Below, one piece after another: positions 20,988-61,660 of a stretch of DNA of 64,000 nt (positions are counted from its first letter, which is position 1; every line of letters begins with the position of its first letter). Origin of the DNA: a virus; IMG/VR virus record IMGVR_UViG_3300034072_001093, positions 1 to 64,000 of that record, one strand, 5' to 3'. Below the pieces are notes generated by a model that was given only the letters and a program-made list of their open reading frames with translations, ran no database searches and was not told where the DNA came from. Made by a program: the position numbers and the translations under genes.

Positions 20988-21042
20988 TGACTCTCGCCCC
21001 CTTATAGGGGCCACAAAACATAATCCCAAAAGGGAAACCCAG

Positions 21043-24000: not shown

Positions 24001-27000
24001 GCAGCTGAGGCAGAGCTGGAAGCTCAGCCGGCTATCGAAGAAATCCCGGTGGTTGAGGAGCCAGTGACAGAAGCTGTCACCCCCGATCCTGAGACTGTCG
24101 TGGAAGAGGTCGTTGAACCCGAACCTGTGCAGGTCGAGGAATCGCCTCAGGAAGCCCAGGAGACCCCTGCTCCCGAGAGCCAACCCGTGGAGACCCAGGA
24201 AGCTGAAATCGTGCCTGACGAGGCTCCTGTGACCGCTGCTGAGGTCTCTGGCATCATTGCTGAAGCTCTGGATGCGAAGATCCCGGAAGCTGAGCCTGCG
24301 GTCGAACCTGCCGAGGTGGTCCCTGCCCCGTCGGTTGCCGAGCCTGCCGAGACGGTGAAGACCCGCTTCCCCAAGCTGGTCGGCCATGCTGCAGGATCGA
24401 AGATCACCAACTGGTTCTCGAGGGCATTCGGCCTGAAGAAGGCGGAAACGATCAAGCTGTGGAGCTATGAGGGCAACCCGATCCGATCGGTGCTCGACAT
24501 GCTCAACGGCAGCCTTGAGGATTATCTGGGCGACAACGCCCCTGAGGCGAACCTGACGCCCCAAGAGATCTCGATGTATGAGGCCTTCATCGAGAAGAAC
24601 GCCAGTGGCATCATCCGATCGCTGAATGGCCGGATCCAGAAGTTCCTCGATGCGCCTCACTCGCAGAAAGAAACCGCTCCCCGCAAGAGCTTCTGGCGGC
24701 AGGGCAAGAAGCCCTACAACGAATACGTGACGGGCCGCATCCTCAACCTGGTCGAGGAGAACGACGGTAAGTTCACTCTGAACCGTGAGCTTGTTGGCAT
24801 GGGTGTGCTGGCTGCTCTGCAGTGGATCCAGCAGACGAACAACTACGGCAAGCGCAAAGAGGGCCGTGACGTTCCCGGTCTGTTGGGCATGTCGAGCCAG
24901 GAAGCCAATTCCAGGCCCGAGCTCGATGGCACCAGGGAAGCGATTGCACGGGAGTTCAACCTCGGCATCACTCGTGTCGAGGCTTCCCGTTCACTGGCCC
25001 AGATGATCCGCAAATACTGGGGTCTGGACACCCGCAAGGATGCGCCGAAGGCTTATACTGACGGCATCGCCGAAGCGCTGGCCAAGGAGATCATCGATAC
25101 GATGGTCGATGGCGGTCTGCTGGTGCGTGAGTTCCCGCTCAACAAGGTGATCCCTAGCAGCAAGACTGCCAAGGAACGGACGGTAGAGATCTACTATCCG
25201 GCTGAGAATGTGCTGCCGGAGACGGGCATTCCCGATTTGATCGAGCGCATGGTCATGCGGAAGCCTGACACGGTGAACTTCGTCGGCACTCCGCCGAAGA
25301 ACATCGCACAGACCCAGGTCAACAACTCGAAGGCGAAGCTCACCAGGGAGCAGAAGGCCGCCATTCGTGCTCGTCAGGCTGTGCCCTTCTTCGTGAACAC
25401 CAGCATGCTGGAGTTCTATCGGAACGCAGGTGACCTGCTGAACACGCTGTTCGGTGGTGGTCGTATCGACGGTCTGCCGATCAATGCAGAGCATCGCCGG
25501 ACCTTGGAAGGGCGTAACCGGACAGTGCAGCTCGGCATGCAGCAGATCGAGAAGCTCGCCCGTGAAATGCAGGCATATGCCGAAGCCAAGGGCATTCCGA
25601 TCGAGGAAGTCCCGGCGCATTTCGAATACAGCTTCAACTCGATGAACCGTGAGCAGATGCTTGGTGGCACCACGCCGCAGAACAACAAGCTGATGCGTGA
25701 GGTCTTCCTGCCCACCACATCGACGAGCGATCTGTCGGACGTGTCGAGCAAGGCTTATCGGGGCTTCATGCTGGCCATGGCTCAGCACATCGGCATAAAG
25801 CTGGAGCGTCAGTCGAGCCAGGACAGCATCGACCAGGCCAAGAGTGATCTCGAGAGCAAGTATGCTCGCTCGATCGCAGGCCTGAAAGTCTGGCTGCAGA
25901 ACAAGGGACCGATCTCGGAAGAGCTGGTTCAGACACTGCAGAGCGAGCTGGGCGGAAAGCTCAACCCGGCTGCCGTGCATGCTCTGATGGAATATGCCCG
26001 GTTCGACGCAATGAGCCAGGAAGAACGCAAGAGCTTCAGCACCTCGCTGTATCTCGAAGCCGATGGTGTGACCAACGGCCCGATCAACGCTCTGATGCTG
26101 TTCAATCCTGGTTCGTTCACGGCAGACTGGATTGCCGATGTTCGTCGTGGTGGTGTGCTGTTCGACGGTGCAGCCTCGATGAACGAAGCCTATGGCAGCA
26201 ATGGGGGTGACCTCTATGCCCGAGCCAGCAAGAAGCTGACCCAGCTGCTGAAGAGCGTGCTGCCCGAGACGGAAGTCGAGCGCAAAGAGCTGGAAGGCCT
26301 GCTGGCGTTCATGGATCTCTTCATGGGCGATGACGTCACCTACACCCAATTCGAGGATGGCACATTCGAGGTGTCCTTCGATCGTGGTGTGACGAAGAAC
26401 CCGCTGACGATCACCCTCTATGGTTCAGGTGCCAACGGCATGGCCGACAAGCTGGCCACCGTGCTCGTGGATGCGATCCACGAGAAGATGACCGAGATGG
26501 CTCTGAGGGGCGATGCAAACCCCAACATCTCGGTGTCGGAAGCGCTGTTCCCCAACGATCCGAACCATGAGGTGAAGTTCGAGTATTTCGAGGGCCTGCT
26601 CAAGGACCTGACCGGTCTGAAGTTCAAGGACCCGATCAGCCTCTCGATCACGAGGGACGCCTATACCCGGCTCAAGAGCCGGATGGCGGAATACATCGTG
26701 CCTCAGCTGCAGGCTGCTATCACGGCAACCGTCGGCAAGACGGTGGTGGACACCCTGACCGATGTCCGGATGGCCACACAGGTGCAGTCGATCGCCCTTC
26801 AGTATGCGTTTGCTGCCGAAGTGAAGAAGCGTCTGGAAGCCAAGGGAGCAAAGAGCTCGGAGTTCCTGTCGCAGCAAGAGCTCGATGAGATCTTCGACTC
26901 CCTGGCTCATCTGGTTCCGATCCTCTCCACCGGGGAGCAGAACTTCTACATCGCCAACTCGCAGCGTGCTGATGAGGACAGCAATCCGTTCTCGCAGCTG

Positions 27001-30000
27001 CTGTCGGGCAAGATGTCGACGCCCGCCTTCCTGGAGAACCCGGCAAACGCTGGTGTCCGGGGCATGCCTTCGCTCGTCATCGGTTCGGGCGATGGCATGA
27101 TGATGCAGAACTTTGCTGGATCCAAGGCAGGTCCGGGCAAGACCCTGGGCGTGTTCGACGGTCTGAACATGCCGATCGACATGATCGAGGAATACAGCAA
27201 GCGGATCAACGCAGCTGTGGCCCAGGCCTGGCAGCGCAATCCCCTGCAGAGTGTGGCTGACACCTTCACGCAGTTCCTGCCGGCCTATTCTCTGAAGGGC
27301 AAGACCTACCAGGAAATCGGGGACATTCGCTATGCCCTGACTGGCGGCACAAACGCGAAGGAAACCCCCGTTGCCGAGCTGGAGCGTCTGCTCAAGGTCC
27401 TGAATGCTTCGCTTCAGCGGGGAGCCATGCAGATGGAAGCCCGCCAGAATGCTCTGGCCCAGGTGGACTTCCGTGTGGACCAGATGGCCGGTGCTGCATC
27501 GCCTCACGTTACCGGGGGCAAGATCTCGCTCGAAGGTATGAGCAACGAGCAGATCGAGCAGGTTCTCAACGATCTCTACAATCAGGAGCTGGCCAAGCTC
27601 GAAGAGCGGGCAGAGACCCTTGCCAAGGCCACCGTGCCTGAAGCCGTGATCGATCTTTCGACCGAGCATCCTTCGGGTGCCCGTGTGGTCCTGCCCCAGG
27701 CTCTGAAGTCGTTGGTCGAGAAGCTGAGCGGCACAGGCTGGCAGCTGAATGTTCTCGGCGATCAGGTCGCTTCGCTCATCGAGCAGGGCTACCAGATCGT
27801 GGCTGGATCGGATGCTCAGCTTCGTTCCTGGCTCAACCAGAATGGCATGAACCAGAGTGTGCTGGACAACCCCGGCGCCGAGACGGTCAATGGCGTCACC
27901 CTGCCCAACTCGAAGGTGATCCTGTTAGTCAACCCGACGGCCGAAACGATCGTCCACGAGATGATCCATGCTGCCACCTACAACACGCTGGCTGCCCATT
28001 ATGCTGGGCAGGATCTGGGTCCCCGTGCCGTGGAGAAGGTCCGTGCGATCGAGCGTCTCGAAGTACTGGCCAAGCAGTTCCTCTCGCTCGACCTGTCCCA
28101 GGCCAGCGAGCAGGTGCAGCGTGCCTATGTGAACGCACGCAATGCCATGAAGCAGGCCCTCGCCGAGGGCAACAAGGCTGCAGCTCTCAATGAGTTCATG
28201 GCCTGGGGTCTGGCGAACCAGGAGCTGGCAGAACAACTGGACAAGACCGAGGCGAATCCCCTGGTCCGAATGCTGCGTGACGTCATCGATGGCATCAAGC
28301 AGCTCATGTTCGGCAAGCGCCAGGTGCCGGTGCTGGGTGACATGCTCAGCAACCTGCGCTTCAACACGGCGATCCTCGCTGTGACCCAGAAGGATGCGTT
28401 CGATCTGTTCGACGAGACGGCACTCTACCACAGCGAAGCCTATGGAAAGTCGCCTCGCCTCAGCCGGATCAACGAGATCCTGCAGGACAAGGTGTTCAGC
28501 TACGTCCGTGGAATGATGGTCGACGAGGGTGAAGCTGCCCAGCAGAATGCACAGAACCAGGTGAGCAACCTTACTGTGCTGGCTGACCAGGCTCTGACTG
28601 GTGCCGTGGGTGCTGGCTTCTCGATGAACATGCAGGAGAAGAGCACCTTCCAGCTGGTAGTTAGCACCATGGCATCTGCCATCCAGCTCGACGGCAATGC
28701 GCTGTCGAAGGCTTCGGAGCTGTTCAACTATGTGACCAAGACGCTGAGCATCAGCGATTTCCTGGCCAATCCGAATGAGGAGAACACCACCGACAGCACG
28801 CTGGCCAACGAGAAATACAACTTCGTCCTGGGCAACTATGGGACGCAGTTCGACCAGCTCAACCGGTCTTCGCTGCTGCCTGTGTTCATGGGCCTGGCTC
28901 TGACCAACGAGGAGTTCCGCAAGGTCCTGGCCAAGATGCCTCTTCCCGCGGATGTCCGGAACACCGATGGCACTCTCGACAACCGGATCGAGAATGCCGG
29001 AAACAATGTGATGGACTGGCTCGGCCGCTACTTGTCGGGGCAGAAGCGCTCGGACAAGACGGTGGGTGCTGTCGTGGACAGCCTGACCGAGCAGGTGCTG
29101 AAGACCGCGGCAGAGCGCCAAAGCTTCATCTCTGTGGTGGCCGGCAAGGCTGGTGGAGTGGTCGATACCGTCAACGATTTCGTGGCGAGCTCGATCGAGT
29201 TCATGTCGGAGCGGGCATTCCTCGGTGGTCAGAAAATCGCCGAGAACGCCACCAACCGGTGGACCAAGGTCGCTGGTGAGGCCATCAGTGCCATGGGTGG
29301 CATCGCCAATCGGGACTATGCCAACAAGCTCGGGGAAAACTGGATCGAGAGCGTGTTTGCTGCTGACCTTCCCAAGCCGCTGACCGATCTGGTCAACGAC
29401 ATGATCGGCCGCACCGAGAGCAATGCCCCGATCTACGACATGATCAAGCGGGTTCGCAGCTGGGTGACCAAGAGCCGTCAGCATTACCGCGAGGATCTGC
29501 CGAAGATCATTGCCAAGCAGTTCTCGAGAGAGCTGAGCAAGCAGGAATGGGCCGATCTCCACAAGGGCATCGGTCAGACTGACGTGGCCGCTCTTCGTAT
29601 GCGGTTCACCATGGCCCAGATCCTGTCGATGCTGGCTGATCCTGGTGTCCTGGCTCAGGAGATGAGCCGCCTCGAAGCCGATCTGAAAGCTGCTCATCCT
29701 CAGGACTTCAACACGCTGCAGCGCAAGTCGGTGCAGCTGGCCGAGTTCATGAACACGGGCAAGCCTGGCACAAATCTGCTTCGTAATGCCTTGGCGATCG
29801 CAGCTCTGCTGGGTGAGAACCGGACGACGAAATATGCTCCGACGGCAACCACCGAGCAGATGGTCGATGCCCTGGTGTCGCTCTACGCCCTCCAGGGTCT
29901 GAACCAGGACACGAAGGACAGCCTGGCCAAGCTGGCTCAGGGCGAAGCCGACGGCCTGTCGTTCACCACGGAATACCTGGCAGCTCTGCGGAAGTTCGAG

Positions 30001-31788
30001 CTTCGCCGGGCAGTCGGGAACGCCAAGTTCAACCACTTCAAGGGGTATCTGCCGAACGCCAAGGATGGCGAGATGACGATCGTTGTCCGCAAGACCGACA
30101 ACTATGCCGATCTGCGTCAGCAGAGCTTCAAGATGATCGGGGTCTACCATGGTTCGAACCTCGATCGCCGATCGGGAACCTCGGCCTATTTCATGGTGCC
30201 GGTGTCGACCCGTGCCAACTATCAGCAGGGCATCATGCAGACTGTCCAGCAGACGGTTGGTGGTGTGGATCTGATGACGGGCCTGAGCCATGATCGATCG
30301 GCTGCAGGTGCCATTGCAGAGCCCAAGACTGTGGCTCGGATCTGGCGCAACCGGCACCAGGAAAATGCTGTGGAGCCCCTGATCCCGATGTTCGACAAGG
30401 ACGGCATGATCATGGGCTATGAGCGCAGCACCAATCCCGAGATCATGGGGCAGATGGGTCAGGAGAACCACCTGGCCAATGCGATGGGTCAATGGCGTGG
30501 GCGTCAGGTCGAAGAGCGTGAAGGTCGCTATGTGAACCAGACGCTGATCGAACGCATGCACCAGATGTGGGAGAAGGCCAGCGCAGAGCAGCAGAAGACC
30601 CAGTTCGTCAACCTGTTCGATCCCAAGGTTCGCAAGGACGATCCTGTGCTGGAAGACATCTTCCAGAGCCTGCCCGGCTATGTGATCCAGGACATCGTGA
30701 AGGTCTTCGGCGAGCAGTTCATGATCCGCAAGGATCTGCTCAATGACTCGATGGGCTATCGTGATGCCTCTATCCGGGATGCCTGGACCGGCAACAGCCG
30801 TCTGGACCCCAAGATCCTGGAGATGATCAAGAACACCACGATCTCGGTGTTCGGCATGGATGGGTATCGCAAGCTGGTGACGGCCGAGAAAACGATCCAG
30901 AACGTGATGACCGACCTTAGGGTGATCATCGTGGTCAAGTCGATGTTCGTGCCTGCTGCGAACCTGACCTGGAACATCTACCAGCTCATGTCCCGTGGTG
31001 TTCCCATTGGTTCGATCGGCAAGGGCATGCCCCGCAAGGTCTCGGAGGTGAACGATTACCTCAAGCGCAAGAGCCGGGAGATCGAGGCCGAAGCCGAGCT
31101 TAAGGCAGTGGGAACCAATGTCCGTGCAGCTCTCAAGCTGGAAGCGGAGATCCAGGCACTCAAGGACAGCTACAAGTTCCTGAGCATCTGGCCTCTGATC
31201 GATGCCGGCGAGCTTAGTTCGATCTCTGACGGCATGCTTTCGCAGGACGATCTGAAGCTTAGCGAGGGCCGCATCAGCGAATATATCGATCGACTGGCTG
31301 ACAAGCTGCCTGCTAGTGTGCGGACCATGGCCAAATACGGTCTGATTGCTCGGGACACGGCGCTGTTCAAGGGGCTGCAGAAGACGGTTGAATACGGGGA
31401 CTTCCTGGCCAAGGCGATCCTCTACGAGGATCTGGTGGGCAGGCAAAAGAAAACGCCCGAAGCAGCACTGGCCATGATCAACGAGGAATACGTCAATTAT
31501 GACCGGCTGCCCGGGCGTACCCGTGGTGCGGTGGAGCAACTCGGGTTGGCATGGTTCTGGAACTTCAAGATCCGATCGACCAAGACGGCTCTGTCGATCG
31601 TGAGGAACAATCCGGTCCACGCACTGATTGCGATGAACCTGCCTGCTCCTGGCTTCCTGGGTGACGTGGGAAGCCCGCTGACGGACAATATGGTGGCTGT
31701 GACGGGTGACGGCAGGGCTGGCTTCTCTATCGGCCTTGAGATGGCCCTGAGGGCGCCTCAGCTGCATCCGCTGGGCAGCGTGCTGTGA
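21043..31788 (+). CDS. Virion-encapsidated RNA polymerase (N4 gp50-like vRNAP)
   Basis: 3581 aa. T7-like motif A (EADGVTNG), motif B (RGVTKNPLTITLYGSG) and motif C (VFDG). No Cys found on reading the translation. HEMIH zincin-like motif in the C-terminal part. Confidence 0.97.
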   Translation: MTNPTDLMNQYLEIYGVRPQTVRGIKQSQVARSSAQKQQELAQISSPEGAYDEFAGDMADTGGASANETQQDFRNLSPGELEAKYGNQAGSIISARVDAGARYRAPQVMRRSAGEIASDLGLAVAKGGAGLLGLGALGVNLGAKAVGADDAAAIGLRAAQFSQSVNDFLTSKQTDALQGEKENTEAEIRQAKRDTDQLYEQERQSGEGGAKVNQILREFRDVGARVLANPTVLGDAVAEGVGSMAGAGVLARGAAKLAGAVSSRVAPGFQLSEKAASRLATANMAASIGAQEGGSAFQGTTLEAYEILNERYPDMSEKQKAELATQAGELAAATQTPIAAVTGLLVARFEMNPLKAPALAFGTNTVKETIEEGVQGATGTLAQNYALGQAVDRDRDLFEGVGDAAARGMIAGFGTGAVVGSPSLAAGTAAGAAKAGVSAASTGAMAVASKTMRGVNAAVSKVEGTSFYQAIKERAQKIIEEEENASPSSAENTKSMLSGAIETVRSMGERVVETLRSEGAPDQAVDDVMELAKTASFDIAEIDETAPELVRTAVAGSTNRFEAMEALAQVVNQAEEGSADQITAARYLADMKSQVEGLTQHKPMESLDEITPESEIDTTVRGLEAGLVNLLDNPGIKRAYELAKTALGAAVEKGAAILRANEDPTTPESQERIKTALAVAEHTPEKSDIETNEVLLKHAENGTIQLTPVQQAQLLSASALVQAERQLLAAQAEQGIKTNVNMVTGQALTDIPDAIGGVRLPSLAGHARRIIQAYKAGSIDVAKAHLQELMQFAQHFQNKVAAANAHFARGGQGRGDRFMALSSQYEPDGSRKMVESSKPFDVRPWNPASVGLAQTVGKEAEVIASVANQIAQAFPDLGIAPVVPVALDPGLSGPVAEVVARNPRGAAASNVPQTPTNVQPVQAQAPVAQQQQQQVQLQADVEQARAKGAVAAASKKDTAPPAEYSTEQKVAWYEGRDEARQLAAQEAAEAELEAQPAIEEIPVVEEPVTEAVTPDPETVVEEVVEPEPVQVEESPQEAQETPAPESQPVETQEAEIVPDEAPVTAAEVSGIIAEALDAKIPEAEPAVEPAEVVPAPSVAEPAETVKTRFPKLVGHAAGSKITNWFSRAFGLKKAETIKLWSYEGNPIRSVLDMLNGSLEDYLGDNAPEANLTPQEISMYEAFIEKNASGIIRSLNGRIQKFLDAPHSQKETAPRKSFWRQGKKPYNEYVTGRILNLVEENDGKFTLNRELVGMGVLAALQWIQQTNNYGKRKEGRDVPGLLGMSSQEANSRPELDGTREAIAREFNLGITRVEASRSLAQMIRKYWGLDTRKDAPKAYTDGIAEALAKEIIDTMVDGGLLVREFPLNKVIPSSKTAKERTVEIYYPAENVLPETGIPDLIERMVMRKPDTVNFVGTPPKNIAQTQVNNSKAKLTREQKAAIRARQAVPFFVNTSMLEFYRNAGDLLNTLFGGGRIDGLPINAEHRRTLEGRNRTVQLGMQQIEKLAREMQAYAEAKGIPIEEVPAHFEYSFNSMNREQMLGGTTPQNNKLMREVFLPTTSTSDLSDVSSKAYRGFMLAMAQHIGIKLERQSSQDSIDQAKSDLESKYARSIAGLKVWLQNKGPISEELVQTLQSELGGKLNPAAVHALMEYARFDAMSQEERKSFSTSLYLEADGVTNGPINALMLFNPGSFTADWIADVRRGGVLFDGAASMNEAYGSNGGDLYARASKKLTQLLKSVLPETEVERKELEGLLAFMDLFMGDDVTYTQFEDGTFEVSFDRGVTKNPLTITLYGSGANGMADKLATVLVDAIHEKMTEMALRGDANPNISVSEALFPNDPNHEVKFEYFEGLLKDLTGLKFKDPISLSITRDAYTRLKSRMAEYIVPQLQAAITATVGKTVVDTLTDVRMATQVQSIALQYAFAAEVKKRLEAKGAKSSEFLSQQELDEIFDSLAHLVPILSTGEQNFYIANSQRADEDSNPFSQLLSGKMSTPAFLENPANAGVRGMPSLVIGSGDGMMMQNFAGSKAGPGKTLGVFDGLNMPIDMIEEYSKRINAAVAQAWQRNPLQSVADTFTQFLPAYSLKGKTYQEIGDIRYALTGGTNAKETPVAELERLLKVLNASLQRGAMQMEARQNALAQVDFRVDQMAGAASPHVTGGKISLEGMSNEQIEQVLNDLYNQELAKLEERAETLAKATVPEAVIDLSTEHPSGARVVLPQALKSLVEKLSGTGWQLNVLGDQVASLIEQGYQIVAGSDAQLRSWLNQNGMNQSVLDNPGAETVNGVTLPNSKVILLVNPTAETIVHEMIHAATYNTLAAHYAGQDLGPRAVEKVRAIERLEVLAKQFLSLDLSQASEQVQRAYVNARNAMKQALAEGNKAAALNEFMAWGLANQELAEQLDKTEANPLVRMLRDVIDGIKQLMFGKRQVPVLGDMLSNLRFNTAILAVTQKDAFDLFDETALYHSEAYGKSPRLSRINEILQDKVFSYVRGMMVDEGEAAQQNAQNQVSNLTVLADQALTGAVGAGFSMNMQEKSTFQLVVSTMASAIQLDGNALSKASELFNYVTKTLSISDFLANPNEENTTDSTLANEKYNFVLGNYGTQFDQLNRSSLLPVFMGLALTNEEFRKVLAKMPLPADVRNTDGTLDNRIENAGNNVMDWLGRYLSGQKRSDKTVGAVVDSLTEQVLKTAAERQSFISVVAGKAGGVVDTVNDFVASSIEFMSERAFLGGQKIAENATNRWTKVAGEAISAMGGIANRDYANKLGENWIESVFAADLPKPLTDLVNDMIGRTESNAPIYDMIKRVRSWVTKSRQHYREDLPKIIAKQFSRELSKQEWADLHKGIGQTDVAALRMRFTMAQILSMLADPGVLAQEMSRLEADLKAAHPQDFNTLQRKSVQLAEFMNTGKPGTNLLRNALAIAALLGENRTTKYAPTATTEQMVDALVSLYALQGLNQDTKDSLAKLAQGEADGLSFTTEYLAALRKFELRRAVGNAKFNHFKGYLPNAKDGEMTIVVRKTDNYADLRQQSFKMIGVYHGSNLDRRSGTSAYFMVPVSTRANYQQGIMQTVQQTVGGVDLMTGLSHDRSAAGAIAEPKTVARIWRNRHQENAVEPLIPMFDKDGMIMGYERSTNPEIMGQMGQENHLANAMGQWRGRQVEEREGRYVNQTLIERMHQMWEKASAEQQKTQFVNLFDPKVRKDDPVLEDIFQSLPGYVIQDIVKVFGEQFMIRKDLLNDSMGYRDASIRDAWTGNSRLDPKILEMIKNTTISVFGMDGYRKLVTAEKTIQNVMTDLRVIIVVKSMFVPAANLTWNIYQLMSRGVPIGSIGKGMPRKVSEVNDYLKRKSREIEAEAELKAVGTNVRAALKLEAEIQALKDSYKFLSIWPLIDAGELSSISDGMLSQDDLKLSEGRISEYIDRLADKLPASVRTMAKYGLIARDTALFKGLQKTVEYGDFLAKAILYEDLVGRQKKTPEAALAMINEEYVNYDRLPGRTRGAVEQLGLAWFWNFKIRSTKTALSIVRNNPVHALIAMNLPAPGFLGDVGSPLTDNMVAVTGDGRAGFSIGLEMALRAPQLHPLGSVL

Positions 31789-39261: not shown

Positions 39262-39328
39262 TCCCTAAATGAGAATAATGGCAGTGTGCATTTATGTAAA
39301 CACACACTATGTTGACATTTGATAAGAC

Positions 39329-48590: not shown

Positions 48591-48899
48591 TCAGTTCGGG
48601 CGTGCAGCCCGGTATGCGTCGTTGATGAGGCCAGCGATAAAACGCCGAACGTCTCCCCGAATGCCGATCTCGTCGGCAACCCAGTTCACCTGGTTCTCGG
48701 GCAGCTGCTCGAAGATCTCCTCCATGAATGATCTGCGAGTATCGTTCGGCTTGATGCCCATGCGGGTCAGCCGGTGAGAGACGCTGGTGTGGTGCATCCC
48801 CAGCTTCCGTGCGATGGAAGCCGCGGAGAACCCCAAAGCGTTCATCCGGAGAATCTCCTCCTTGGTGTCGTAGAATTGTTCTGTTTTAGAAGCTGGCAT
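48591..48899 (-). CDS. HTH DNA-binding protein
   Basis: GFSAASIARKLGMHHTSVSHRL forms an HTH. Confidence 0.8.
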   Translation of the reverse strand: MPASKTEQFYDTKEEILRMNALGFSAASIARKLGMHHTSVSHRLTRMGIKPNDTRRSFMEEIFEQLPENQVNWVADEIGIRGDVRRFIAGLINDAYRAARPN

Positions 48900-48929: not shown

Positions 48930-49200
48930 TGCAGACGTGCAGGATCGTCCGGAAAAGGTTCCGAAGTTGAGACGATCCTGCGGGATCAGCTAATTTTGCT
49001 ATGCTGGAAAAGCATGGTCAGTGCTTTCTCCTGGCTCAAGCAGACAGCTTCGGGTCGCGCACCCCAAGGGCACCACCCGAAGTAACAATCGCCAACCAAA
49101 TACCCTGAGGGGGAGCGGATACTGGGATTGGTGAGACTGTCACCCTTAGCCCCGGCAGAGGCCACGTTCTGTCTACTAAATTGATGTTTGGTCTGGGTTT
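48930..49200 (-). ncRNA. Structured leader RNA candidate with a 9-codon uORF (48986-49015)
   Basis: Multi-branch closing stem 49039-49047/49169-49177, inner stem CTTCGGGT/ACCCGAAG, and hairpin GCAGGATCGTC/GACGATCCTGC. Confidence 0.4.
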
Positions 49201-49286
49201 ATGAGAAGTTGGTCGCTTCTATCCTATGATAGGGCAAGCCTGAATCTGGTGGCAAGCACTATTTAGAGGTATGTCGACATTTCGTC

Positions 49287-49751
49287 TCAAATCTCCAGGA
49301 GCTTCCGGTGCTGGATCAGGTAGGAAGTTGCTCTTTCGAGCAAAGCCAGATCGTCTTTGAAGAAGCCCAGGCCGCGGTTACAGGAGCTGCAAAGCATGCC
49401 CCTGAAAGTGTGGGTCTGGTGACAATGATCGATCGAAAGCTCTTTCCACCTACCATCTCCAGCAGCCCCACAAAGGTCACAAAGACCGTTATGGGCGAGA
49501 AGCTGCTGAATAAGCTCTGGGGTCGCTTTGACGCCGATCCGACGAAGACGGTATCTCAGGCGACCCTCCGGATTGCCGTGATACCTATCGGAGGATTGAG
49601 CGTTGAGCTTGTCCTTGTTGGCCTGGCGATAACTCCGCATATACGCCTGATGCTGAGCCAGCTTATCGGGATCCGCATTACGCTTTGCCCTCGCTCTGGC
49701 GCATGCTTCGAGCTTCTTAGCAGAAGTTTTGTTAACCCTGGTCACGGTCAA
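49287..49751 (-). CDS. Endonuclease VII-type HNH (putative free-standing homing endonuclease)
   Basis: CxxC...IDHCH...RGMLCSSCNRGLG. Overlaps the thyX stop. Confidence 0.85.
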   Translation of the reverse strand: MTVTRVNKTSAKKLEACARARAKRNADPDKLAQHQAYMRSYRQANKDKLNAQSSDRYHGNPEGRLRYRLRRIGVKATPELIQQLLAHNGLCDLCGAAGDGRWKELSIDHCHQTHTFRGMLCSSCNRGLGFFKDDLALLERATSYLIQHRKLLEI

Positions 49752-50644
49752 ATCTCCAGAGTTTTGCGAAACTGAATCCAGCCCGTGAAGTTCCCGTGGA
49801 GGTCAGATCTTGCCCATTCATAGGTTCCGTCTGGACGAGGGTCTAAAGCCTCATCAGGTGTTGCCTGATGCTCTGCAGGTGAGGCATGCAGGGGCTTGGA
49901 GCCAACGAGGCGATCGAACAGCTTCAGGTCTTCCTCGACGGTGGTCTGGCGGCCGTCATGGGTCAGGTAGCTGACACGAGCACAGCGAGCGGTGGAGACC
50001 TTCTTGAGGATGTCGTTTATCTGGCCAGGCATGGGAACGACACGCATGACGCCGTTCCCGGTAATCCGGTCCTGGGCTGCCTTGACGTCATCGCGGGTGA
50101 TGTAAGGCAGATGCCAGTCTTCCGGAGCCAGGTGCTGAGGATGGCTGCTGCACAGAGCGTTGAGCATTTCCAGAGCCAGGACCTTCATCTCAGGCTGGGC
50201 ATCGGGGTGAGCACGCAGCTCGAAGAAGTTCTCCCAGTCCGTCGCCGTGACGACGACGTTGATGTGTGCCCATGGTTCGAGGATGCGATTGGCAATCTGC
50301 TTGTGGAGACCGAGACGAACCATCTCTTCTGCAGCTCTGATGCAGCAATCGAGAGCATCGTGCCACTCTGCGTTGGCATATGCCAGGTCATCTGCGGTGA
50401 GTTCAGCTCCAGCCTGCATCCCAGGCTTATTGCTGCCCCAGAAGACAGGCATGGCAGGATCCCGGCGAAGATCTTCGATCATTCGTTCGACAGGGATAGC
50501 TCGACTGGAGCTTGCGTTCCGCGAAAAGACCCTGTGTGTCATAAACTCCGCATGGATGAACCTCGGGTAGCGTAGCTGCATGGTTGTGAGGCGGATTCCA
50601 GCAGGTGAGATGCTGTCCGCGATCACTTTGGCATAGATTGTCAT
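49748..50644 (-). CDS. thyX: Flavin-dependent thymidylate synthase
   Basis: THRVFSRNASSSRAIP (ThyX motif), KQIANR, CARVSY and HASPAEH. Confidence 0.92.
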   Translation of the reverse strand: MTIYAKVIADSISPAGIRLTTMQLRYPRFIHAEFMTHRVFSRNASSSRAIPVERMIEDLRRDPAMPVFWGSNKPGMQAGAELTADDLAYANAEWHDALDCCIRAAEEMVRLGLHKQIANRILEPWAHINVVVTATDWENFFELRAHPDAQPEMKVLALEMLNALCSSHPQHLAPEDWHLPYITRDDVKAAQDRITGNGVMRVVPMPGQINDILKKVSTARCARVSYLTHDGRQTTVEEDLKLFDRLVGSKPLHASPAEHQATPDEALDPRPDGTYEWARSDLHGNFTGWIQFRKTLEI

Positions 50645-50826
50645 GGGTCTGTGTCTTTCTGGGTTTGTGAAGTCCGAGACACTCTGGAGAGAGCCTCGGT
50701 TGGTCGACTTCAAGGGGGTCAGATGGTGCACTCACGGTTTACAGTGTTAGGGTAAACCTGAGGAAAGCTGGGGGTTTGCTGGGGATATGGTTTACAAGAA
50801 AATCCTTATTTTTCAATGATACGCAA

Positions 50827-50874
50827 GGAATCATAATCCGTAGGTCGGGGGTTCAAGTCCCTCCTCCGCTACCA
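50827..50874 (+). other. attP core: 3' half of an elongator tRNA-Met (CAT)
   Basis: GGA-ATCATAA-TCC anticodon arm, GGGGG-TTCAAGT-CCCTC T arm, CTCCGCT-A-CCA end. No 5' half or D arm upstream. About 60 bp from the integrase stop. Confidence 0.85.
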
Positions 50875-50932
50875 AAAAATCCCGGTAAAACAAAGGTTTA
50901 GAGGAGCGGCAAATTTCAGATGAAACCAAAGT

Positions 50933-52012
50933 TTACACGCCTTTGTAAACTTTTCCGCGCTGGGTCTTCTGGCCCATGCCGCGCATCTTTTGCGCCAAGT
51001 GCATGATGACCCGTGCGTTATCGACATATCTGAGCCGTACAGCGGACACTTTCTCCGAACTCCAACCAAGAATCTTGGCGATGTCATCGTCGTTGAGGCC
51101 GTTCTGCACCAGCTTAGTGGCGAAAGTGCCACGAAGGTCGTGAAGAACACGATCGAACCCTGGCGGAAACGATTTCCGGAGCATGCAAGACAGCCCTTGC
51201 TTGGTCCAAGCGAACCCGCGGCTGTTTTTCAGCACGGTTCCGGTCTGCTCTCTGCCCTTCAACCATGCCCTGAGTTCAGGGAGCATGGGGATGATGGCCT
51301 CTGTTCCTCGCTTCTCGGTGCGTTCGACCCAGACAAAATTCTGGTCGAGGTTCACATTACCCCACTCAAGCTTGACCAGATCTCCGAGACGGAGACCGGT
51401 GAGGCTGGCGAGAACGATGGCGTCCATGACGTGCGTCGGGATCTTGGCATTGTGAATGGCGTCCCAGTGACGCTCCTCCCAGATCTCGTCGGCCTTGTTG
51501 ACGCGGTGGAGCTTGGAGATGCCGTCGGCACAGTTGTGGTCGACCATGGCGTTCTCCCTGCCCCAGTTGAGCAGGGTGCTCATCATGACGACACCCTTGT
51601 CGGCCGAGCGGGGTTGGTCCCTCCACTGGTTCCGCCAGCCGTGGACCTTGCCTCGCATCTTGGCATCGTTGAAGAGCTCAAGGGGCATCTTCCCGAAGTG
51701 CTCGTCGATCCGGTTGAGCCAGAGACGGTAGTCCTTTTTGGTGGCCGGCTTCAGCCGACCAAACTCGGGGCTGTCCTGGTAGGCTGTAATGAGGGCACTC
51801 ATTCTGACGGTCTTCTCGTCTCGATCTTTGTTCATGGCCGCGAGCTGCTTGGCGAGCAGCTTTTGGGTGATAACGGGGGGGACGTGATCATCCGTCTGGA
51901 TGAGTGGTCCCCCCCGCCAGGCATACGAATAGTACCGATCGCCCCATCTGAGGCGTTTGCGGACAATGTGTATCCCTATCACGACCTTAGTCCTGCGCCG
52001 CGAAGTAGGCAT
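50933..52012 (-). CDS. int: Tyrosine integrase (start uncertain: ATG 52012 or GTG 51982)
   Basis: Catalytic residues R (TGLRLGD), K (TEKRG), HxxR (HDLRGT), W (LGW) and Y (RYV), with an N-terminal arm-binding-like segment. Confidence 0.92.
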   Translation of the reverse strand: MPTSRRRTKVVIGIHIVRKRLRWGDRYYSYAWRGGPLIQTDDHVPPVITQKLLAKQLAAMNKDRDEKTVRMSALITAYQDSPEFGRLKPATKKDYRLWLNRIDEHFGKMPLELFNDAKMRGKVHGWRNQWRDQPRSADKGVVMMSTLLNWGRENAMVDHNCADGISKLHRVNKADEIWEERHWDAIHNAKIPTHVMDAIVLASLTGLRLGDLVKLEWGNVNLDQNFVWVERTEKRGTEAIIPMLPELRAWLKGREQTGTVLKNSRGFAWTKQGLSCMLRKSFPPGFDRVLHDLRGTFATKLVQNGLNDDDIAKILGWSSEKVSAVRLRYVDNARVIMHLAQKMRGMGQKTQRGKVYKGV

Positions 52013-52196
52013 CGAATCTGTCCCGTAGCGTGGTCTCCTTGGCTGCCGGGGGCAGCTGCGGAGATGGTAAGCATGAAACAGTGACTCCATCTTCCCGGAT
52101 GTCAACGGAGTTGGGCATGAAGCCGTATTCCCGCTTGAGCATGTCGAGGATGGATCGCACCTCGGTTAGAGGCACGGTACGCCGCTTTGTAGTCAC
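51987..52196 (-). CDS. Excisionase/recombination-directionality-factor candidate
   Basis: 69-aa protein with a GGGAGG SD, immediately upstream of and overlapping int. Confidence 0.45.
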   Translation of the reverse strand: MTTKRRTVPLTEVRSILDMLKREYGFMPNSVDIREDGVTVSCLPSPQLPPAAKETTLRDRFDAYFAAQD

Positions 52197-52340
52197 GAAT
52201 CCTCCCTTGGTCCCGTGAAGCTGAGCCTGACCTGCTCAGCCGCACAGAGATGATTCTGTTGATGGTCATGGTTTGGCACCGAAGTGCCTGGTCTGGGTTT
52301 TTACGGTGCTCTGTAAGGGGGGGCGAGCACTGTGAGAGGG

Positions 52341-52372
52341 CATATCCCGGATGGTTTCCAACATGTCAACAT
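52341..52372 (-). promoter_or_regulatory. Sigma70-like promoter for xis-int overlapped by palindrome ATGTTGACAT
   Basis: TTGACA (52369-52364)-17 bp-GATATG (52346-52341). The palindrome spans 52363-52372. Confidence 0.6.
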
Positions 52373-52409
52373 AGCCTGAAAAGATAACATCGAGCCCCTT
52401 CGGGTAAAC

Positions 52410-52802
52410 TTAACATCGGTTGTTTTTGGGTAAGCCCTCCTGTCCGATATGCTGCTGCATGTTGCTGCAGGTTCGAGCTATGAGATGGCATTGGTAAACC
52501 AGAGGTAACGCATCCCAGACGTCTGATAACCAAATGAAAATGCGCTGTTTTACCGTGACATCTTCAAATTGGGTCTTATCTGGGAGTGAAATGCCCGAAG
52601 GTGTTTCCACAGGATTATTCGATCCATTTTGGTTGTTGTTTGCCGCCTGCAGGAGGTCATAAAACTCCTGCAGTGTGGCCTGGAGGCCACTCTTATCGAC
52701 CGGAATTTCGATCTTGTCGAAGTCCGGATTGATCTTGGCTGCGTCTGCCTGGGTGGTGAGGACGTGGATTCGCTGCCCATCGTTTGCGGTGTAGAAGATC
52801 AT
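52410..52802 (-). CDS. Hypothetical protein
   Basis: ATGA overlap with the deaminase stop. TQADA...IPVDKSGL motif and an AT-rich 3' half. Confidence 0.6.
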   Translation of the reverse strand: MIFYTANDGQRIHVLTTQADAAKINPDFDKIEIPVDKSGLQATLQEFYDLLQAANNNQNGSNNPVETPSGISLPDKTQFEDVTVKQRIFIWLSDVWDALPLVYQCHLIARTCSNMQQHIGQEGLPKNNRC

Positions 52803-53389
52803 GCCTGGTTCCTCAGCTGGCGAGTTGCCTCGCGTCTGCGTTCGACATTGGCGTTGTTGGCCTCAAGGAGGCCTCGGACACGCCACTCGAGAAACTGGAT
52901 TCGATCCTTGAGCTTCTCTTGATTGGGCGGAGGTGAGCCAGGGAGAACCCTGACAGTCACCCCACCTTCGAACAGGATCTCGGCCGCCTGTCTCATGCTC
53001 TCTCCCCATCGGGGATCGTCATGGTCGAATGGATAGACCACCACGCAGCTGATCCCAGCCTGAACGATGTCGCCTGCACAGTTCGCACAAGGGAACCAGG
53101 GAATATACATGGTGCATCCCCTGGTGCTGGCTCCCATGCGTGCTGCATTGAGGATAGCATTCTCCTCGGCATGCTTGGTGAAGGCGTATTTGGTCGGCCT
53201 GGCGTGGCGCGATTCGATTGTGTCATCCACGCCCCTGGGGAAGCCGTTCCAGCCTGAGCTGACCTGCTCCTGGTCAGGGCCGACGATGACAGCACCAACC
53301 TGCCGGCCACGGTCCTTGGACCATTCGGCATAGTGCAGGGCGAGCGACATCCATCGCTCGTCCCACATGCGCTGCTTCGAGGCGATCAT
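52799..53389 (-). CDS. dCMP deaminase
   Basis: HAEENA and PCxxC zinc motifs, SKD..RQVGAVIV and GWNGFP. Confidence 0.92.
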   Translation of the reverse strand: MIASKQRMWDERWMSLALHYAEWSKDRGRQVGAVIVGPDQEQVSSGWNGFPRGVDDTIESRHARPTKYAFTKHAEENAILNAARMGASTRGCTMYIPWFPCANCAGDIVQAGISCVVVYPFDHDDPRWGESMRQAAEILFEGGVTVRVLPGSPPPNQEKLKDRIQFLEWRVRGLLEANNANVERRREATRQLRNQA

Positions 53390-53574
53390 GATGCCTCCCC
53401 GAAATACAGCTTCCGGCAGGTCTTGCAGGTGACTTTGCCGAAATTTTCCTGGGAGGCGAAATAGTAGCTGCCTTCCAGGGGCTGACCACAAAGGGTGGTT
53501 GTGGGGTTGACTCGGTTACGGTCGGCGATGTGGCGAGCCTTGCTGTCGTCGAGCAGGGTATCGATTGCGGGCAT
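53386..53574 (-). CDS. Small Cys/His (zinc-ribbon-like) protein
   Basis: H...TLCG...VTCKTC pattern with an AGGAG SD. Confidence 0.6.
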   Translation of the reverse strand: MPAIDTLLDDSKARHIADRNRVNPTTTLCGQPLEGSYYFASQENFGKVTCKTCRKLYFGEAS

Positions 53575-57144: not shown

Positions 57145-57408
57145 TCAGAAGGGGACGGAGTCGATCATCTGGATCACGTCAGGGCTGAAACGCAGCCACT
57201 CGACGTTCTTGTTCGCCCATTCGAGGTAGTCGGGATCGTCACGGAACACTTCCGAGACGAGGCGACCTTTGTGTTTCCCAAAGGTCAGCCGGCTGTCCCA
57301 TCCGAAGGTCGTGACGGAATCGTGCTGCTTGAAGCGATTGGGGGTGGTGGTCTGGGGCTGCTCATCGAGCGGCAAGCCGCAGTAAGGGCACTCCTTGTGG
57401 TGGCCCAT
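57145..57408 (-). CDS. Small protein with CxxC and TFGKHKG (exodeoxyribonuclease X C-terminal-like) motif
   Basis: LTFGKHKG...DPDYLEW, with a GGAG SD. Confidence 0.7.
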   Translation of the reverse strand: MGHHKECPYCGLPLDEQPQTTTPNRFKQHDSVTTFGWDSRLTFGKHKGRLVSEVFRDDPDYLEWANKNVEWLRFSPDVIQMIDSVPF

Positions 57409-61276: not shown

Positions 61277-61660
61277 TTAGCTGGTTGGGCAGACAACAGC
61301 GAAGAGAGCTTCGCCTGCGCTATCCGGAATTACGGGCTCCCATCCGGTATTGAGAGGTCCTGATTTTCTGTTCCCATCTGCTGATGTGAGGACCATGAAG
61401 GAGCTCTTAGTCATGCGCCTAGAGCAGTCCACCTCTTCAAACACCAGCTTCTCTTCACGAGTCCTGGAGTTTGTCATTTTCAGCCAGTAGGTCGGCAGAG
61501 ATTTGGTGGCCATTGCCTTTCGGATGTCCGAAGCCTTCAAGAAGAAGGTGTTTCCCTCGCGAGAAACTATCACCTCCACCCACCGGTCATCAGTTTGTGC
61601 CAATGCTGGGACGGAGGATAATGCCCCCAATATGGAGGCAATGAGCACAAGCTTCTTCAT
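61277..61660 (-). CDS. Secreted/periplasmic protein with signal peptide
   Basis: MKKLVLIASILGALSSVPALA|Q, two Cys, WxxVIPDS, and atypical codon usage. Confidence 0.75.
   Translation of the reverse strand: MKKLVLIASILGALSSVPALAQTDDRWVEVIVSREGNTFFLKASDIRKAMATKSLPTYWLKMTNSRTREEKLVFEEVDCSRRMTKSSFMVLTSADGNRKSGPLNTGWEPVIPDSAGEALFAVVCPTS

Follow-up and report, generated by a model that had tools for sequence, protein, structure and literature searches.

N4-like phages in culture are regarded as purely lytic, one reason being that an injected polymerase sets off their transcription cascade. The locus described here raises the question of whether a phage with such a backbone can also integrate into the chromosome of its host. 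Between the genes for a dCMP deaminase and the thymidylate synthase ThyX lies a module made of a 69-aa open reading frame (ORF), a tyrosine integrase gene (int) and a 288-bp attachment region (attP). A first-pass annotation had called this module a complete lysogeny cassette. The window, by which we mean the whole 64-kb stretch analysed, belongs to a 75-kb N4-like genome that was recovered from subsurface and soil metagenomes and assembles as a circle. The genes and regions concerned are:

21043-31788, plus strand: virion RNA polymerase (vRNAP), the N4 hallmark, 3581 aa (phrog_2206, E 0)
49748-50644, minus strand: thymidylate synthase ThyX, flanking attP (PF02511, E 7e-15; phrog_85, E 6e-100)
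50645-50932, unstranded: whole attP region, non-coding, 288 bp, between the thyX start (ATG 50644) and the int stop
50933-51982, minus strand: tyrosine integrase of the lambda-Int type, 349 aa from GTG 51982 (PF00589, E 1.7e-16; phrog_1, E 2.6e-33)
51987-52196, minus strand: conserved 69-aa ORF, candidate directionality or accessory factor, with a GGGAGGA ribosome-binding site, kept with int
52197-52409, minus strand: leader of the small-ORF/int unit, with a palindrome, a phage-wide motif and a hairpin
52410-52802: ORF130, function unassigned, between the dCMP deaminase gene and the small ORF
52799-53491, minus strand: dCMP deaminase, the other flank of the module (PF00383, E 8e-24; phrog_174, E 2e-47)

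The carrier of the module is a complete, unintegrated N4-like (Schitoviridae) phage. Its vRNAP aligns with phrog_2206 ('virion RNA polymerase') from position 15 to position 3404 of 3406, and both subunits of RNAPII and an N4-type SSB are identified via phrog_2166, phrog_2051 and phrog_743. Primase and TerL are encoded as well. The gene order RNAP2-ATPase-vWA-deaminase-thymidylate synthase-rIIA/B-helicase-DNA polymerase is the same as in Sinorhizobium phage ort11, which, however, has no int. The DNA polymerase is 62% identical to those of JWAlpha, inbricus, ort11 and Ea9-2. The full-length vRNAP, RNAPII, the SSB and the gene order bear out the N4-like, vRNAP-dependent backbone that had been proposed.

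The module occupies a variable region of this backbone, between the vWA gene and rIIA. ORF130 has no family match in Pfam, PHROG or NCBIfam, and the ESM Atlas gave no usable lead. The 75-kb record closes on itself via a 127-bp end overlap; we read this "direct terminal repeat" as an assembly overlap of circular closure and not as a true phage terminal repeat. With phage genes on both sides (thyX and dCMP deaminase) and a circular record, the earlier reading of attP as the excised or virion form holds.

Within attP, one segment points directly to the target:

50827-50874, plus strand: attP core; its 48 bp coincide with positions 29-76 of an alphaproteobacterial tRNA(CAU) gene of 77 nt

The core opens in the 5' strand of the anticodon stem, of which it has the 3' part, runs through the anticodon loop (ATCATAA) and the T arm, and closes with the 3' strand of the acceptor stem and CCA. 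Compared with tRNA(CAU) genes, it is identical at 48 of 48 positions, and the identity begins exactly at tRNA position 29 (GGA) and extends to CCA. It lies 58 bp from the int stop at 50933, and ARAGORN finds no whole tRNA in the window, in agreement with the earlier description of a 48-bp tRNA 3' half, ending in CCA and lacking its 5' half, about 60 bp past that stop. A permissive Rfam search of 50600-51000 returned only T-arm-like noise, as expected for half a tRNA.

Over the 41 nt scanned, exact core matches were found at 39 bacterial genome loci, 35 of which are complete 77-nt tRNA(CAU) genes; ARAGORN calls tRNA-Met(cat) at 35 loci. This comparison confirms that the target is a host tRNA gene with the anticodon CAU, as had been claimed. 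Meanwhile, metagenome contigs of many bacteria leave the phage sequence at 50826/50827 and continue into tRNA 5' halves. The more specific naming of an elongator tRNA-Met is supported by the anticodon and by the lack of initiator features: A1-U72 is paired, and the stem GCGGA/UCCGU, read directly, does not have three consecutive G-C pairs. On the other hand, lysidine-modified tRNA-Ile2 likewise has a CAU anticodon and stands as the alternative. A blastn comparison with annotated E. coli tRNAs matched only the rRNA-operon tRNA-Ile(GAU), via generic arms, and is uninformative on Met versus Ile2.

Sphingomonadales is the label of 23 of the 39 exact-match loci, and we infer that the host is a Sphingomonadales-type alphaproteobacterium. 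The candidates include the cultivable genera Blastomonas, Sphingorhabdus and Sphingopyxis. A search for the integrase in five candidate hosts whose genomes match the core exactly gave no hit at E 1e-10 or better.

Williams reportedly described, in Nucleic Acids Res in 2002, sublocation classes of tRNA-gene integrases, with crossing over in the anticodon loop among them. The phage core resembles the sites of such anticodon-loop integrases in its identity block from the anticodon stem to the 3' end (~45-50 bp) and in the stem halves, which are symmetric around a 7-bp loop. An intact tRNA would likewise be regenerated at the int-proximal junction. The difference is that the crossover position is deduced here from the start of identity at position 29.

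The integrase is intact, and its model predicts a heterobivalent enzyme with N-terminal arm-binding, core-binding and catalytic domains. An intact tyrosine integrase had been claimed before, and the matches to PF00589 and phrog_1 and the catalytic residues agree: R198, K224, H281, R284, W307 and Y319 are invariant in an alignment of 27 homologs, with K224 assigned as the catalytic lysine by position only. The ORF at full extent covers 50933-52105 on the minus strand. GTG 51982 is the likely start, because it equals gene call P0001 and fits the N-termini of the homologs; the alternative is ATG 52012 (JGI call, 359 aa). In the AF2 model (pLDDT 88), the N-terminus forms strands 5-11, 14-20 and 27-32 and a helix 40-57, with pLDDT 86-95. 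The best Foldseek matches are full-length lambda Int structures (1z1b/1z1g, E ~5e-10, 341-345 columns), whereas the sequence identity to lambda Int is only ~16%. The GC3 of int is 0.75, like that of most backbone genes (commonly 0.70-0.87); its neighbours have 0.60-0.67.

The 69-aa ORF had been described as xis-like and overlapping int. It does lie directly upstream, but its TAA stop is 4 nt ahead of the int GTG, and an overlap (26 nt) arises only with the ATG start. Homologs with 37-51% identity stand directly upstream of the same integrase family in at least 14 IMG/VR prophage loci. Position and conservation are what speaks for the term xis-like. The ORF has no Pfam, PHROG or NCBIfam match at E up to 0.01, and no known excisionase resembles it by sequence (HTH_17, lambda Xis, AlpA and Cox families) or by fold. 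Its AF2 model (pLDDT 73) is a helix-strand-strand-helix, and fold searches gave nothing above noise (best Foldseek E 0.63, best VIA-align Z 3.3). In Brucella phage BiPBO1, whose integrase is 31% identical, an annotated HTH_17 excisionase occupies the corresponding position.

We also predicted a complex of the small ORF with Int. The score of 0.53, against 0.00 for the best control, supports the pairing weakly: of 80 solved complexes 58 attain the mark, as do 2 of 110 mismatched pairs, and at 0.60 or under it is attained by only 7 of the 80 and by both passing mismatches. The runs share at least 73% of contacts, with a partner pLDDT of at least 60. On this analysis, the small ORF is a candidate accessory or directionality factor of Int.

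Around the core and in the leader we notice four groups of short motifs:

50737-50796, plus strand: P-arm repeats, candidate arm-type Int sites, with GTTTACA at 50737 and 50790 (53 bp apart) and an inverted GTAAAC at 50752-50757
50928-50953, unstranded: P'-arm inverted pair AAAGTTTACA-n6-TGTAAACTTT, overlapping the final codons and stop of int
52292-52299, in the minus-strand leader: phage-wide motif AACCCAGA
52363-52372, in the leader: palindrome ATGTCAACAT, containing TTGACA on the minus strand

GTTTACA occurs nine times in the window against 1.5 expected, and four of the nine copies are inside attP. Counted as GTTTAC, five copies fall within the 288 bp, on both sides of the core, as candidate Int-binding sites. 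Their layout is two direct GTTTAC(A) copies, the core, and then the inverted pair. In the leader, the motif AACCCAGA is one of 21 copies (2 expected), all on the coding strand. The palindrome occurs three times in the 75-kb genome against ~0.3 expected, each time 70-95 nt upstream of a copy of that motif. The leader also holds a GGCAC-TTCG-GTGCC hairpin. No consensus sigma-70 promoter was called on the leader strand, and no separate int promoter was identified.

The arrangement resembles that of phage lambda in the predicted heterobivalent fold of Int, in the small gene directly upstream of int and in the arm repeats flanking the core. In contrast, attB of lambda lies between gal and bio, whereas the core here is part of a tRNA gene and the arm motif is GTTTAC(A). 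The small ORF is dissimilar to lambda Xis in sequence and predicted fold, and no counterpart of the CI/Cro/CII circuit was recognised in the phage.

When IMG/VR was scanned with int or the vWA protein as single queries, no relatives appeared; these emerged only with alignments. The integrase belongs with an alphaproteobacterial prophage family (IMG/VR loci L045, L046, L049 and L059; Mesorhizobium phage vB_MseS-P1 gp1/gp2; chromosomal integrases in Novosphingobium, Croceicoccus and Erythrobacter), whose Int proteins are 33-51% identical to it; the nearest named ones, at ~50%, are from the last three genera. The members have in common a homologous small upstream ORF, the GTTTAC repeat layout and mostly tRNA-Met cores. 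They differ in that they are 35-50 kb prophages without N4 genes, and their tRNA-Met cores are a different variant, 91-94% identical to the core of this phage. Two direct copies ~52 bp apart upstream of the core are also seen in L045, L046, L047, L052, L056 and L062, and an equivalent inverted pair beyond the core in L045, L046 and L049.

For two prophages with integrases of this family, the site is an intact tRNA-Met gene. Locus L059, which is integrated, has an intact tRNA-Met followed by the inverted pair and then by int, the arrangement predicted for attL; in L058, an intact tRNA-Met is near int. Remoter integrase relatives in Sphingomonadales genomes are mostly beside tRNA-Gly(CCC), and the tie to tRNA-Met is limited to the close subfamily. 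Related integrases are also found on contigs of N4-like size (P0006 cluster, 71,173, 73,648 and 146,052 bp; P0055, 73,991 bp), an observation that is suggestive only.

One further contig, L047, represents a second N4-like lineage; its identities to this phage are 66% for DNA polymerase, 61% for thyX and 49% for int. The contig has the small ORF, of which the cut end is visible, int and attP in the same place beside thyX, with GTTTAC repeats and a core that is tRNA-Arg(ACG)-like. On the other hand, neither the int family nor the small-ORF family was found in any of 80 related N4-like IMG/VR loci. Contigs of a sludge run (study P2) differ at 5 of 986 nt over 51262-52247 and at 8 of 359 over 50515-50873; in this sludge relative the module is ~99.5% identical, against ~92% for the flanks. 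More relatives occur in a run from a third study (P3).

Copies flanked by attL and attR, which the first-pass annotation had proposed to look for, did not turn up for this lineage: the 39 tRNA loci contain no homologs of window ORFs, and the vRNAP domain, a query that recovers itself as a positive control, was not found in 401 sampled Sphingomonadales and 401 sampled Alphaproteobacteria genomes (one genome per species). Exact-pattern scans of metagenome contigs gave no match for a hybrid attL (tRNA positions 27-28, core and P' arm) or for P arm plus core, and a scan of IMG/VR none for the core end plus P' arm. These blanks are uninformative on integration, because even the attP form itself went unmatched. 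Logan contigs break inside the 48-bp core, so attL and attR are neither visible nor excludable there.

As regards maintenance, the ~30 ORFs scanned, many of them without an assigned function, showed no recognisable repressor, Cro or antirepressor family. The earlier remark that no CI/Cro-like pair is visible in the window is thereby upheld and extended to 20 further small early or middle ORFs genome-wide, outside the window as well. Of the complete lysogeny cassette, the integration module stands; the word complete is an overstatement, because neither a maintenance function nor an integrated copy was found.

Our findings support the idea that the module is a working lambda-type site-specific integration system, to which we assign a probability of roughly 75%. 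After infection, the small ORF and int would be transcribed along with the phage's own early and middle operons. Int would bridge the arm repeats and the core and exchange strands within the 7-bp anticodon loop, the anticodon-stem halves serving as core-type sites. The 75-kb genome would then insert into the tRNA gene of a Sphingomonadales-type alphaproteobacterium, and attL would again have a whole tRNA, completed by the copied 3' part and convergent with int. The small ORF may serve as the accessory or directionality factor of Int; if it is a directionality factor, its tight coupling to int would favour excision, a point against this reading. Whether a stable, inducible lysogen results is, in our judgement, an even bet.

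We can also imagine true lysogens that have no dedicated immunity repressor, an idea that we regard as improbable. Since the early promoters would be read only by injected vRNAP, the integrated genome would be silent by default, and exit would run through host RNAP at a few phage-specific control regions. Candidates for these are the three ATGTYRACAT palindromes, one of which lies over TTGACA in the small-ORF/int leader. They may be governed by a conserved 102-aa HTH protein, which is encoded at 48591-48899, just downstream of the second palindrome.

Two other readings accept the module as genuine and give it a different role. It may have been gained by recombination with the int/att end of a resident Sphingomonadales prophage and be carried with no part in the life cycle of a strictly lytic phage. 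Elsewhere the integrase family occurs in non-N4 prophages of 35-50 kb, the insertion is in the variable region between the vWA gene and rIIA, the 80 related N4-like loci are without it, and neither a prophage copy nor a repressor was found, all of which would fit such an origin. We nevertheless consider a mere passenger unlikely. Every part is intact and the full attP architecture is retained, the GC3 of int is backbone-like, and the leader bears the phage-wide AACCCAGA motif and the phage-specific palindrome. The module of the sludge relative is also more conserved than its flanks. Moreover, the diverged ortholog (49%) in the second N4-like lineage, at the same position and with another tRNA core, argues for long retention and att-site switching under selection. 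A role for an active integrase outside classical lysogeny, as transient or abortive integration, a carrier state, or recombination with prophages or islands at the same tRNA site, seems to us quite improbable. It would agree with the presence of other elements at this tRNA site in candidate hosts, with tRNA 3' fragments that lack a 5' half in a Sphingorhabdus MAG (L015, paired with L009) and a Rhodomicrobiaceae MAG (L039), and with the lack of a recognisable maintenance gene. The small ORF and int also appear to form a single expression unit. Against this, other N4-like lineages are reported as integrated proviruses (PMC10654107), and ordinary lysogeny is therefore possible in the virus family.

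The module could finally be an artefact, a prophage int/att end mis-joined into an N4-like contig, as the first-pass annotation had itself warned. The Logan contigs of the possible source run do stop inside the 48-bp core, at 50846-50856, and the core is common to many bacterial tRNA genes in the sample. However, in a contig from an independent study the thyX side continues through the P arm into the core (50515-50873), and other such contigs span int and the small ORF (51262-52247) and ORF130 and the deaminase (52266-53452). L047 holds int, attP and thyX, on to DNA polymerase, in a single contig, and the IMG/VR record is circular. Since contigs from two other studies carry the module, an assembly chimera is contradicted, and we give it a negligible chance.

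Zheng et al. (2023, mSystems 8:e00197-23; PMC10654107) found lysogeny hallmark genes in 54 N4-like genomes and described 40 N4-like proviruses in integrated form, mainly in Moraxella and also in two Enterococcus faecium strains, and concluded that some N4-like viruses are lysogenic. The earlier statement that integrase-bearing N4-like genomes were already on record is thus correct. In the main text of that study (PMC10654107), 'tRNA' is used solely for host prediction, and no attP, arm sites or target are described. The present phage resembles the set of Zheng et al. in combining a Schitoviridae backbone and vRNAP with an integrase, in genomes from IMG/VR metagenomes. It differs in its alphaproteobacterial tRNA(CAU) target, in its Sphingomonadales-type prophage integrase and in that no integrated copy was found.

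The genome is a well-resolved addition to the 2023 metagenomic claim of temperate N4-like phages. Its defined attP, predicted attB and candidate arm sites are usable in a direct integration assay. The ortholog in a second N4-like lineage with a different core suggests that the module is kept by selection and not by accident. The question that is now sharpened is how such an N4-like prophage would be silenced and restarted. For phage therapy and for annotation, N4-like backbones are not safely assumed to be integrase-free.

The integration module of this phage, which consists of a small ORF, a tyrosine integrase gene (int) and attP, is real and looks functional. It lies within the early and middle genes of an N4-like genome, between the genes for dCMP deaminase and thyX.

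Virion RNA polymerase gene, and the genes around the module in minus-strand order
21043–31788, plus strand: virion RNA polymerase (vRNAP), a 3581-aa ORF with a full-length match to the virion RNA polymerase family
52799–53491, minus strand: dCMP deaminase, the first gene in minus-strand order around the module
52410–52802, minus strand: ORF130, function not assigned, between the dCMP deaminase and the 69-aa ORF
51987–52196, minus strand: small ORF, 69 aa, between ORF130 and int
50933–51982, minus strand: tyrosine integrase, GTG start (alternative 359-aa call from ATG 52012)
between int and thyX: 288 bp of non-coding DNA, holding the attP core
49748–50644, minus strand: thyX, beyond the non-coding stretch

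Besides vRNAP, the genome encodes both RNAPII subunits, an N4-type SSB, a primase and TerL, and is N4-like. With about 62% identity between its DNA polymerase and those of Achromobacter JWAlpha-like phages, Pseudomonas phage inbricus, Sinorhizobium phage ort11 and Erwinia phage Ea9-2, the phage has no close cultured relative. Around the module the backbone order is the same as in ort11, which carries no integrase. The full record, of which the window spans 1–64000, comprises 75,061 bp and is rated 100% complete with 'direct terminal repeats' in IMG/VR. This repeat is a 127-bp identity of the record ends (1–127 and 74935–75061), which looks like the overlap from circular assembly closure, typical of k-mer overlap, and not a phage terminal repeat. 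Late genes occupy the plus strand from about 68 kb via the record ends to about 33 kb, and the early and middle genes read the other way, on the minus strand, between about 67.8 kb and 33 kb. Judged by this strand switch, the true genome ends probably lie near 67.8–68.1 kb. In the early region, the C-terminal stretch of a 116-aa ORF (locus L109:4235–4585, minus strand; genome 64235–64585) matches the C-terminal domain of ribosomal protein L7/L12 (PF00542, E 6.5e-8, which passes the curated cut-off). Of two further early ORFs, 61277–61660 and 57145–57408 (both minus strand), one has a weak Adhesin_E-like match (E 5e-4, below cut-off), and the other matches an ExoX-like C-terminal motif (PF20600, E 3e-11).

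The integrase matches PF00589 (E 1.7e-16) and phrog_1 (E 2.6e-33). In a 27-member alignment of homologs, R198, K224, H281, R284, W307 and Y319 are invariant, as is an N-terminal YAWRGGP motif. The AlphaFold model (pLDDT 88) displays an N-terminal three-stranded sheet with a helix, a helical core-binding domain and a catalytic domain, and full-length lambda integrase (1z1b/1z1g, E ~5e-10, 341–345 aligned columns) is what it matches best in the PDB. On the basis of this predicted fold and these matches, we assign the protein as a lambda-type, heterobivalent integrase. The closest proteins (63% and 61% identical) are on short metagenome contigs; the relatives that bear a name are integrases from the chromosomes of Novosphingobium, Croceicoccus and Erythrobacter, with about 50% identity. 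Among the cultured phages compared, the best matches (31–33%) come from temperate phages of Mesorhizobium, Rhizobium, Brucella and Paracoccus, and none is an N4-like isolate. The GC3 of int is 0.75, like that of most backbone genes (commonly 0.70–0.87); its neighbours (endonuclease VII, thyX, ORF130, deaminase) lie at 0.60–0.67. Of the chromosomal integrases in the sampled genomes, the closest (E 5.5e-143) belongs to a Sphingomonadales genome (L193). Behind it come two copies of GTAAAC and a 48-bp core fragment that resembles tRNA-Met, with a second, partial core copy (29 bp) about 800 bp further on. No complete tRNA is found in this locus, and the element may be decayed or tandem.

The small ORF has no Pfam, PHROG or NCBIfam match. 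Its homologs (37–51% identity) stand immediately upstream of int in at least 14 prophage loci, sharing the N-terminus MTxKRRLVP and the motif VDIRxDGVT; gp2 of Mesorhizobium phage vB_MseS-P1 is a probable homolog. The AF2 model (pLDDT 73) is helix-strand-strand-helix, and nothing among solved folds matches it above noise. Prediction of a complex with Int gave a score of 0.53, versus 0.00 for the best control, with runs agreeing in at least 73% of contacts and a partner pLDDT of at least 60. Among solved complexes, 58 of 80 reach the mark for such predictions, and among mismatched pairs 2 of 110 do; within the band of 0.60 or less it was reached by just 7 of the 80 solved complexes, and both passing mismatches fell there too. 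The prediction lends weak support to an interaction. Brucella phage BiPBO1 encodes an annotated HTH_17 excisionase at this position, in front of an integrase with 31% identity. From position and co-conservation only, we read the small ORF as an Int accessory or directionality factor that belongs to no assigned family.

The attP core is a 48-bp tRNA-derived block with a terminal CCA, and ARAGORN finds no complete tRNA in the window. A 41-nt part of it has exact matches at 39 loci in species-representative bacterial genomes, 35 of which are complete 77-nt tRNA(CAU) genes. Side by side, the phage equals the tRNA from position 29 through CCA, while the sequence upstream is unrelated; this identity block, 50827–50874 (plus strand), coincides exactly with the core placed by the first-pass annotation. 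Going by their record titles, 23 of these 39 loci belong to Sphingomonadales (Blastomonas, Sphingorhabdus, Sphingopyxis). The others are further Alphaproteobacteria and a few contigs labelled Betaproteobacteria, whose flanks resemble the flanks of the Blastomonas loci. In many bacterial metagenome contigs the alignment is limited to the core and gives way to tRNA 5' halves at 50826/50827. An elongator tRNA-Met had been proposed as the target. Position 1 is paired with position 72 and the three G-C pairs of initiators are absent, so an initiator tRNA is excluded; the tRNA(CAU) is either elongator Met or lysidine Ile2. Identity from position 29 places the anticodon-stem halves GGA/TCC symmetrically around the 7-bp anticodon loop, the usual core arrangement of integrases that cross over in this loop. 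From where identity starts, we infer the same crossover here. In a Sphingorhabdus MAG (L009/L015) and a Rhodomicrobiaceae MAG (L032/L039), one complete tRNA(CAU) gene is accompanied by one 3' fragment without a 5' half, and in L015 the identity of the fragment also begins at position 29. Here other integrated elements, unrelated to the phage, occupy the same tRNA site.

Where 1.5 copies of the heptamer GTTTACA would be expected, the window has 9, and four of the nine lie in attP.

Repeats around the attP core
50737 and 50790: GTTTACA, direct copies 53 bp apart, upstream of the core (thyX side)
50752: additional inverted hexamer
50827–50874, plus strand: core
50931/50944: GTTTACA, inverted pair beyond the core, overlapping the int stop

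We compared this layout with that of 67 IMG/VR loci encoding the same integrase family, using only loci with sequence available beyond int. There, copies of the same hexamer surround a tRNA-derived core in the order seen in the phage, with two direct copies about 52 bp apart, the core, and an inverted pair 13–14 bp apart. The core is tRNA-Met in six loci, 91–94% identical to that of the phage, and derives from other tRNAs elsewhere, such as a Phe-like one in L062; more distant relatives in Sphingomonadales genomes mostly lie beside tRNA-Gly. L059 and L058 hold an intact tRNA-Met, and in L059 the order tRNA, inverted pair, int is exactly the attL predicted for this phage. This shared layout is the main evidence that the GTTTAC repeats are candidate arm-type Int sites and that attP may be functional.

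One of the 67 loci, the 16.3-kb IMG/VR contig L047, belongs to a second N4-like phage. It carries the cut end of the small ORF, an int 49% identical and an attP with GTTTAC repeats, followed in the same order by a thyX with 61% identity, MazG, helicase and a DNA polymerase with 66%. In place of tRNA-Met, the core of L047 corresponds to the 3' part of a tRNA-Arg(ACG)-like gene. Orthologous modules aimed at different tRNAs therefore stand at the same place in two diverged N4-like lineages, and this argues for retention under selection. The module is rare among N4-like phages: neither int nor the small ORF appears in any of 80 N4-like IMG/VR loci fetched around a gp24-like ATPase (39–69% identity). 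In two of the 80, the same variable region, downstream of a vWA gene, holds a tyrosine integrase unrelated to this one (L124:15230–16393 and L162:11299–12474, one with an Arm-DNA-bind_2 domain), and in L162 a tRNA 3' fragment lies about 158 bp upstream of int. These are independent acquisitions.

Parts of 49000–53500 occur in sixteen public runs, the four best from one study of subsurface and soil metagenomes, which may be the source, and we compared contigs of four runs with this region. In the run that may be the source, contigs ending inside the core cover the stretch without differences. In a sludge run of a different study, 51262–52247 shows 5 differences in 986 nt and 50883–51156 shows 4 in 274, and a contig spanning 50515–50873 joins thyX, the thyX-side arm and the core with 8 in 359. 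The flanks differ at 97 of 1187 nt over ORF130 and the deaminase and at 23 of 323 over thyX; the module is better conserved than its surroundings in this relative. Further relatives of this region come from a third study, in one of its runs. Contigs of independent studies thus join or cover the module, ruling out an assembly chimera. Beside thyX, an endonuclease VII/HNH-type ORF (49287–49751, minus strand) is an optional insert: a relative lacks it, since one contig of a sludge run leads straight from 49286 to 49748 and omits 461 bp. The ORF looks like a mobile gene of the homing-endonuclease type.

The 213-bp leader of the small ORF contains the octamer AACCCAGA, which has 21 copies in the window where 2 are expected, all of them on the coding strand (for example at 21036, 34399, 45614, 48580, 50658, 52292 and 55887). 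It often ends 1–10 nt before a start codon, and at the start of vRNAP it overlaps the ATG. A role as a translation or leader signal that replaces the Shine-Dalgarno sequence is possible. The leader also has the palindrome ATGTCAACAT. Palindromes of the form ATGTYRACAT number three in 75 kb against about 0.3 expected (39309–39318, 49271–49280, 52363–52372), all intergenic, each 70–95 nt upstream of a AACCCAGA copy at a minus-strand operon head. They show no enrichment in 81 related loci and are phage-specific candidates for an operator or promoter element. Because its leader carries both motifs, the module appears wired into the phage's own expression signals.

A search for integrated copies of this lineage, as the first-pass annotation had suggested, found none in the 39 tRNA loci or the sampled genomes. 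No window ORF has a homolog at these loci, the integrase is absent from five candidate host genomes, and the vRNAP polymerase domain, a query that finds itself as control, has no match in samples of 401 Sphingomonadales and 401 Alphaproteobacteria genomes. Scans for the hybrid attL pattern returned 0 and are uninformative, because scans for the attP form itself also returned 0. The earlier remark that no CI/Cro-like pair is visible holds: Pfam and PHROGs reveal no repressor, Cro or antirepressor family in about 30 early and middle ORFs. The only helix-turn-helix candidate is a 102-aa protein (48591–48899, phrog_6377), also present in relatives without int.

IMG/VR mining has yielded 54 N4-like genomes that encode an integrase, transposase or DGR, together with 40 integrated N4-like proviruses, most of them in Moraxella, leading to the conclusion that some N4-like viruses are lysogenic; the main text gives no description of att sites (Zheng et al., 2023, PMC10654107). 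Our literature searches turned up no later experimental work. Integrase-bearing N4-like genomes are therefore known already. What our analysis adds is a resolved layout of attP and its candidate arm sites, an attB predicted in candidate hosts (cultivable genera among them), and evidence for module retention across two N4-like lineages. It sharpens the question of how an N4-like prophage would be silenced and restarted.
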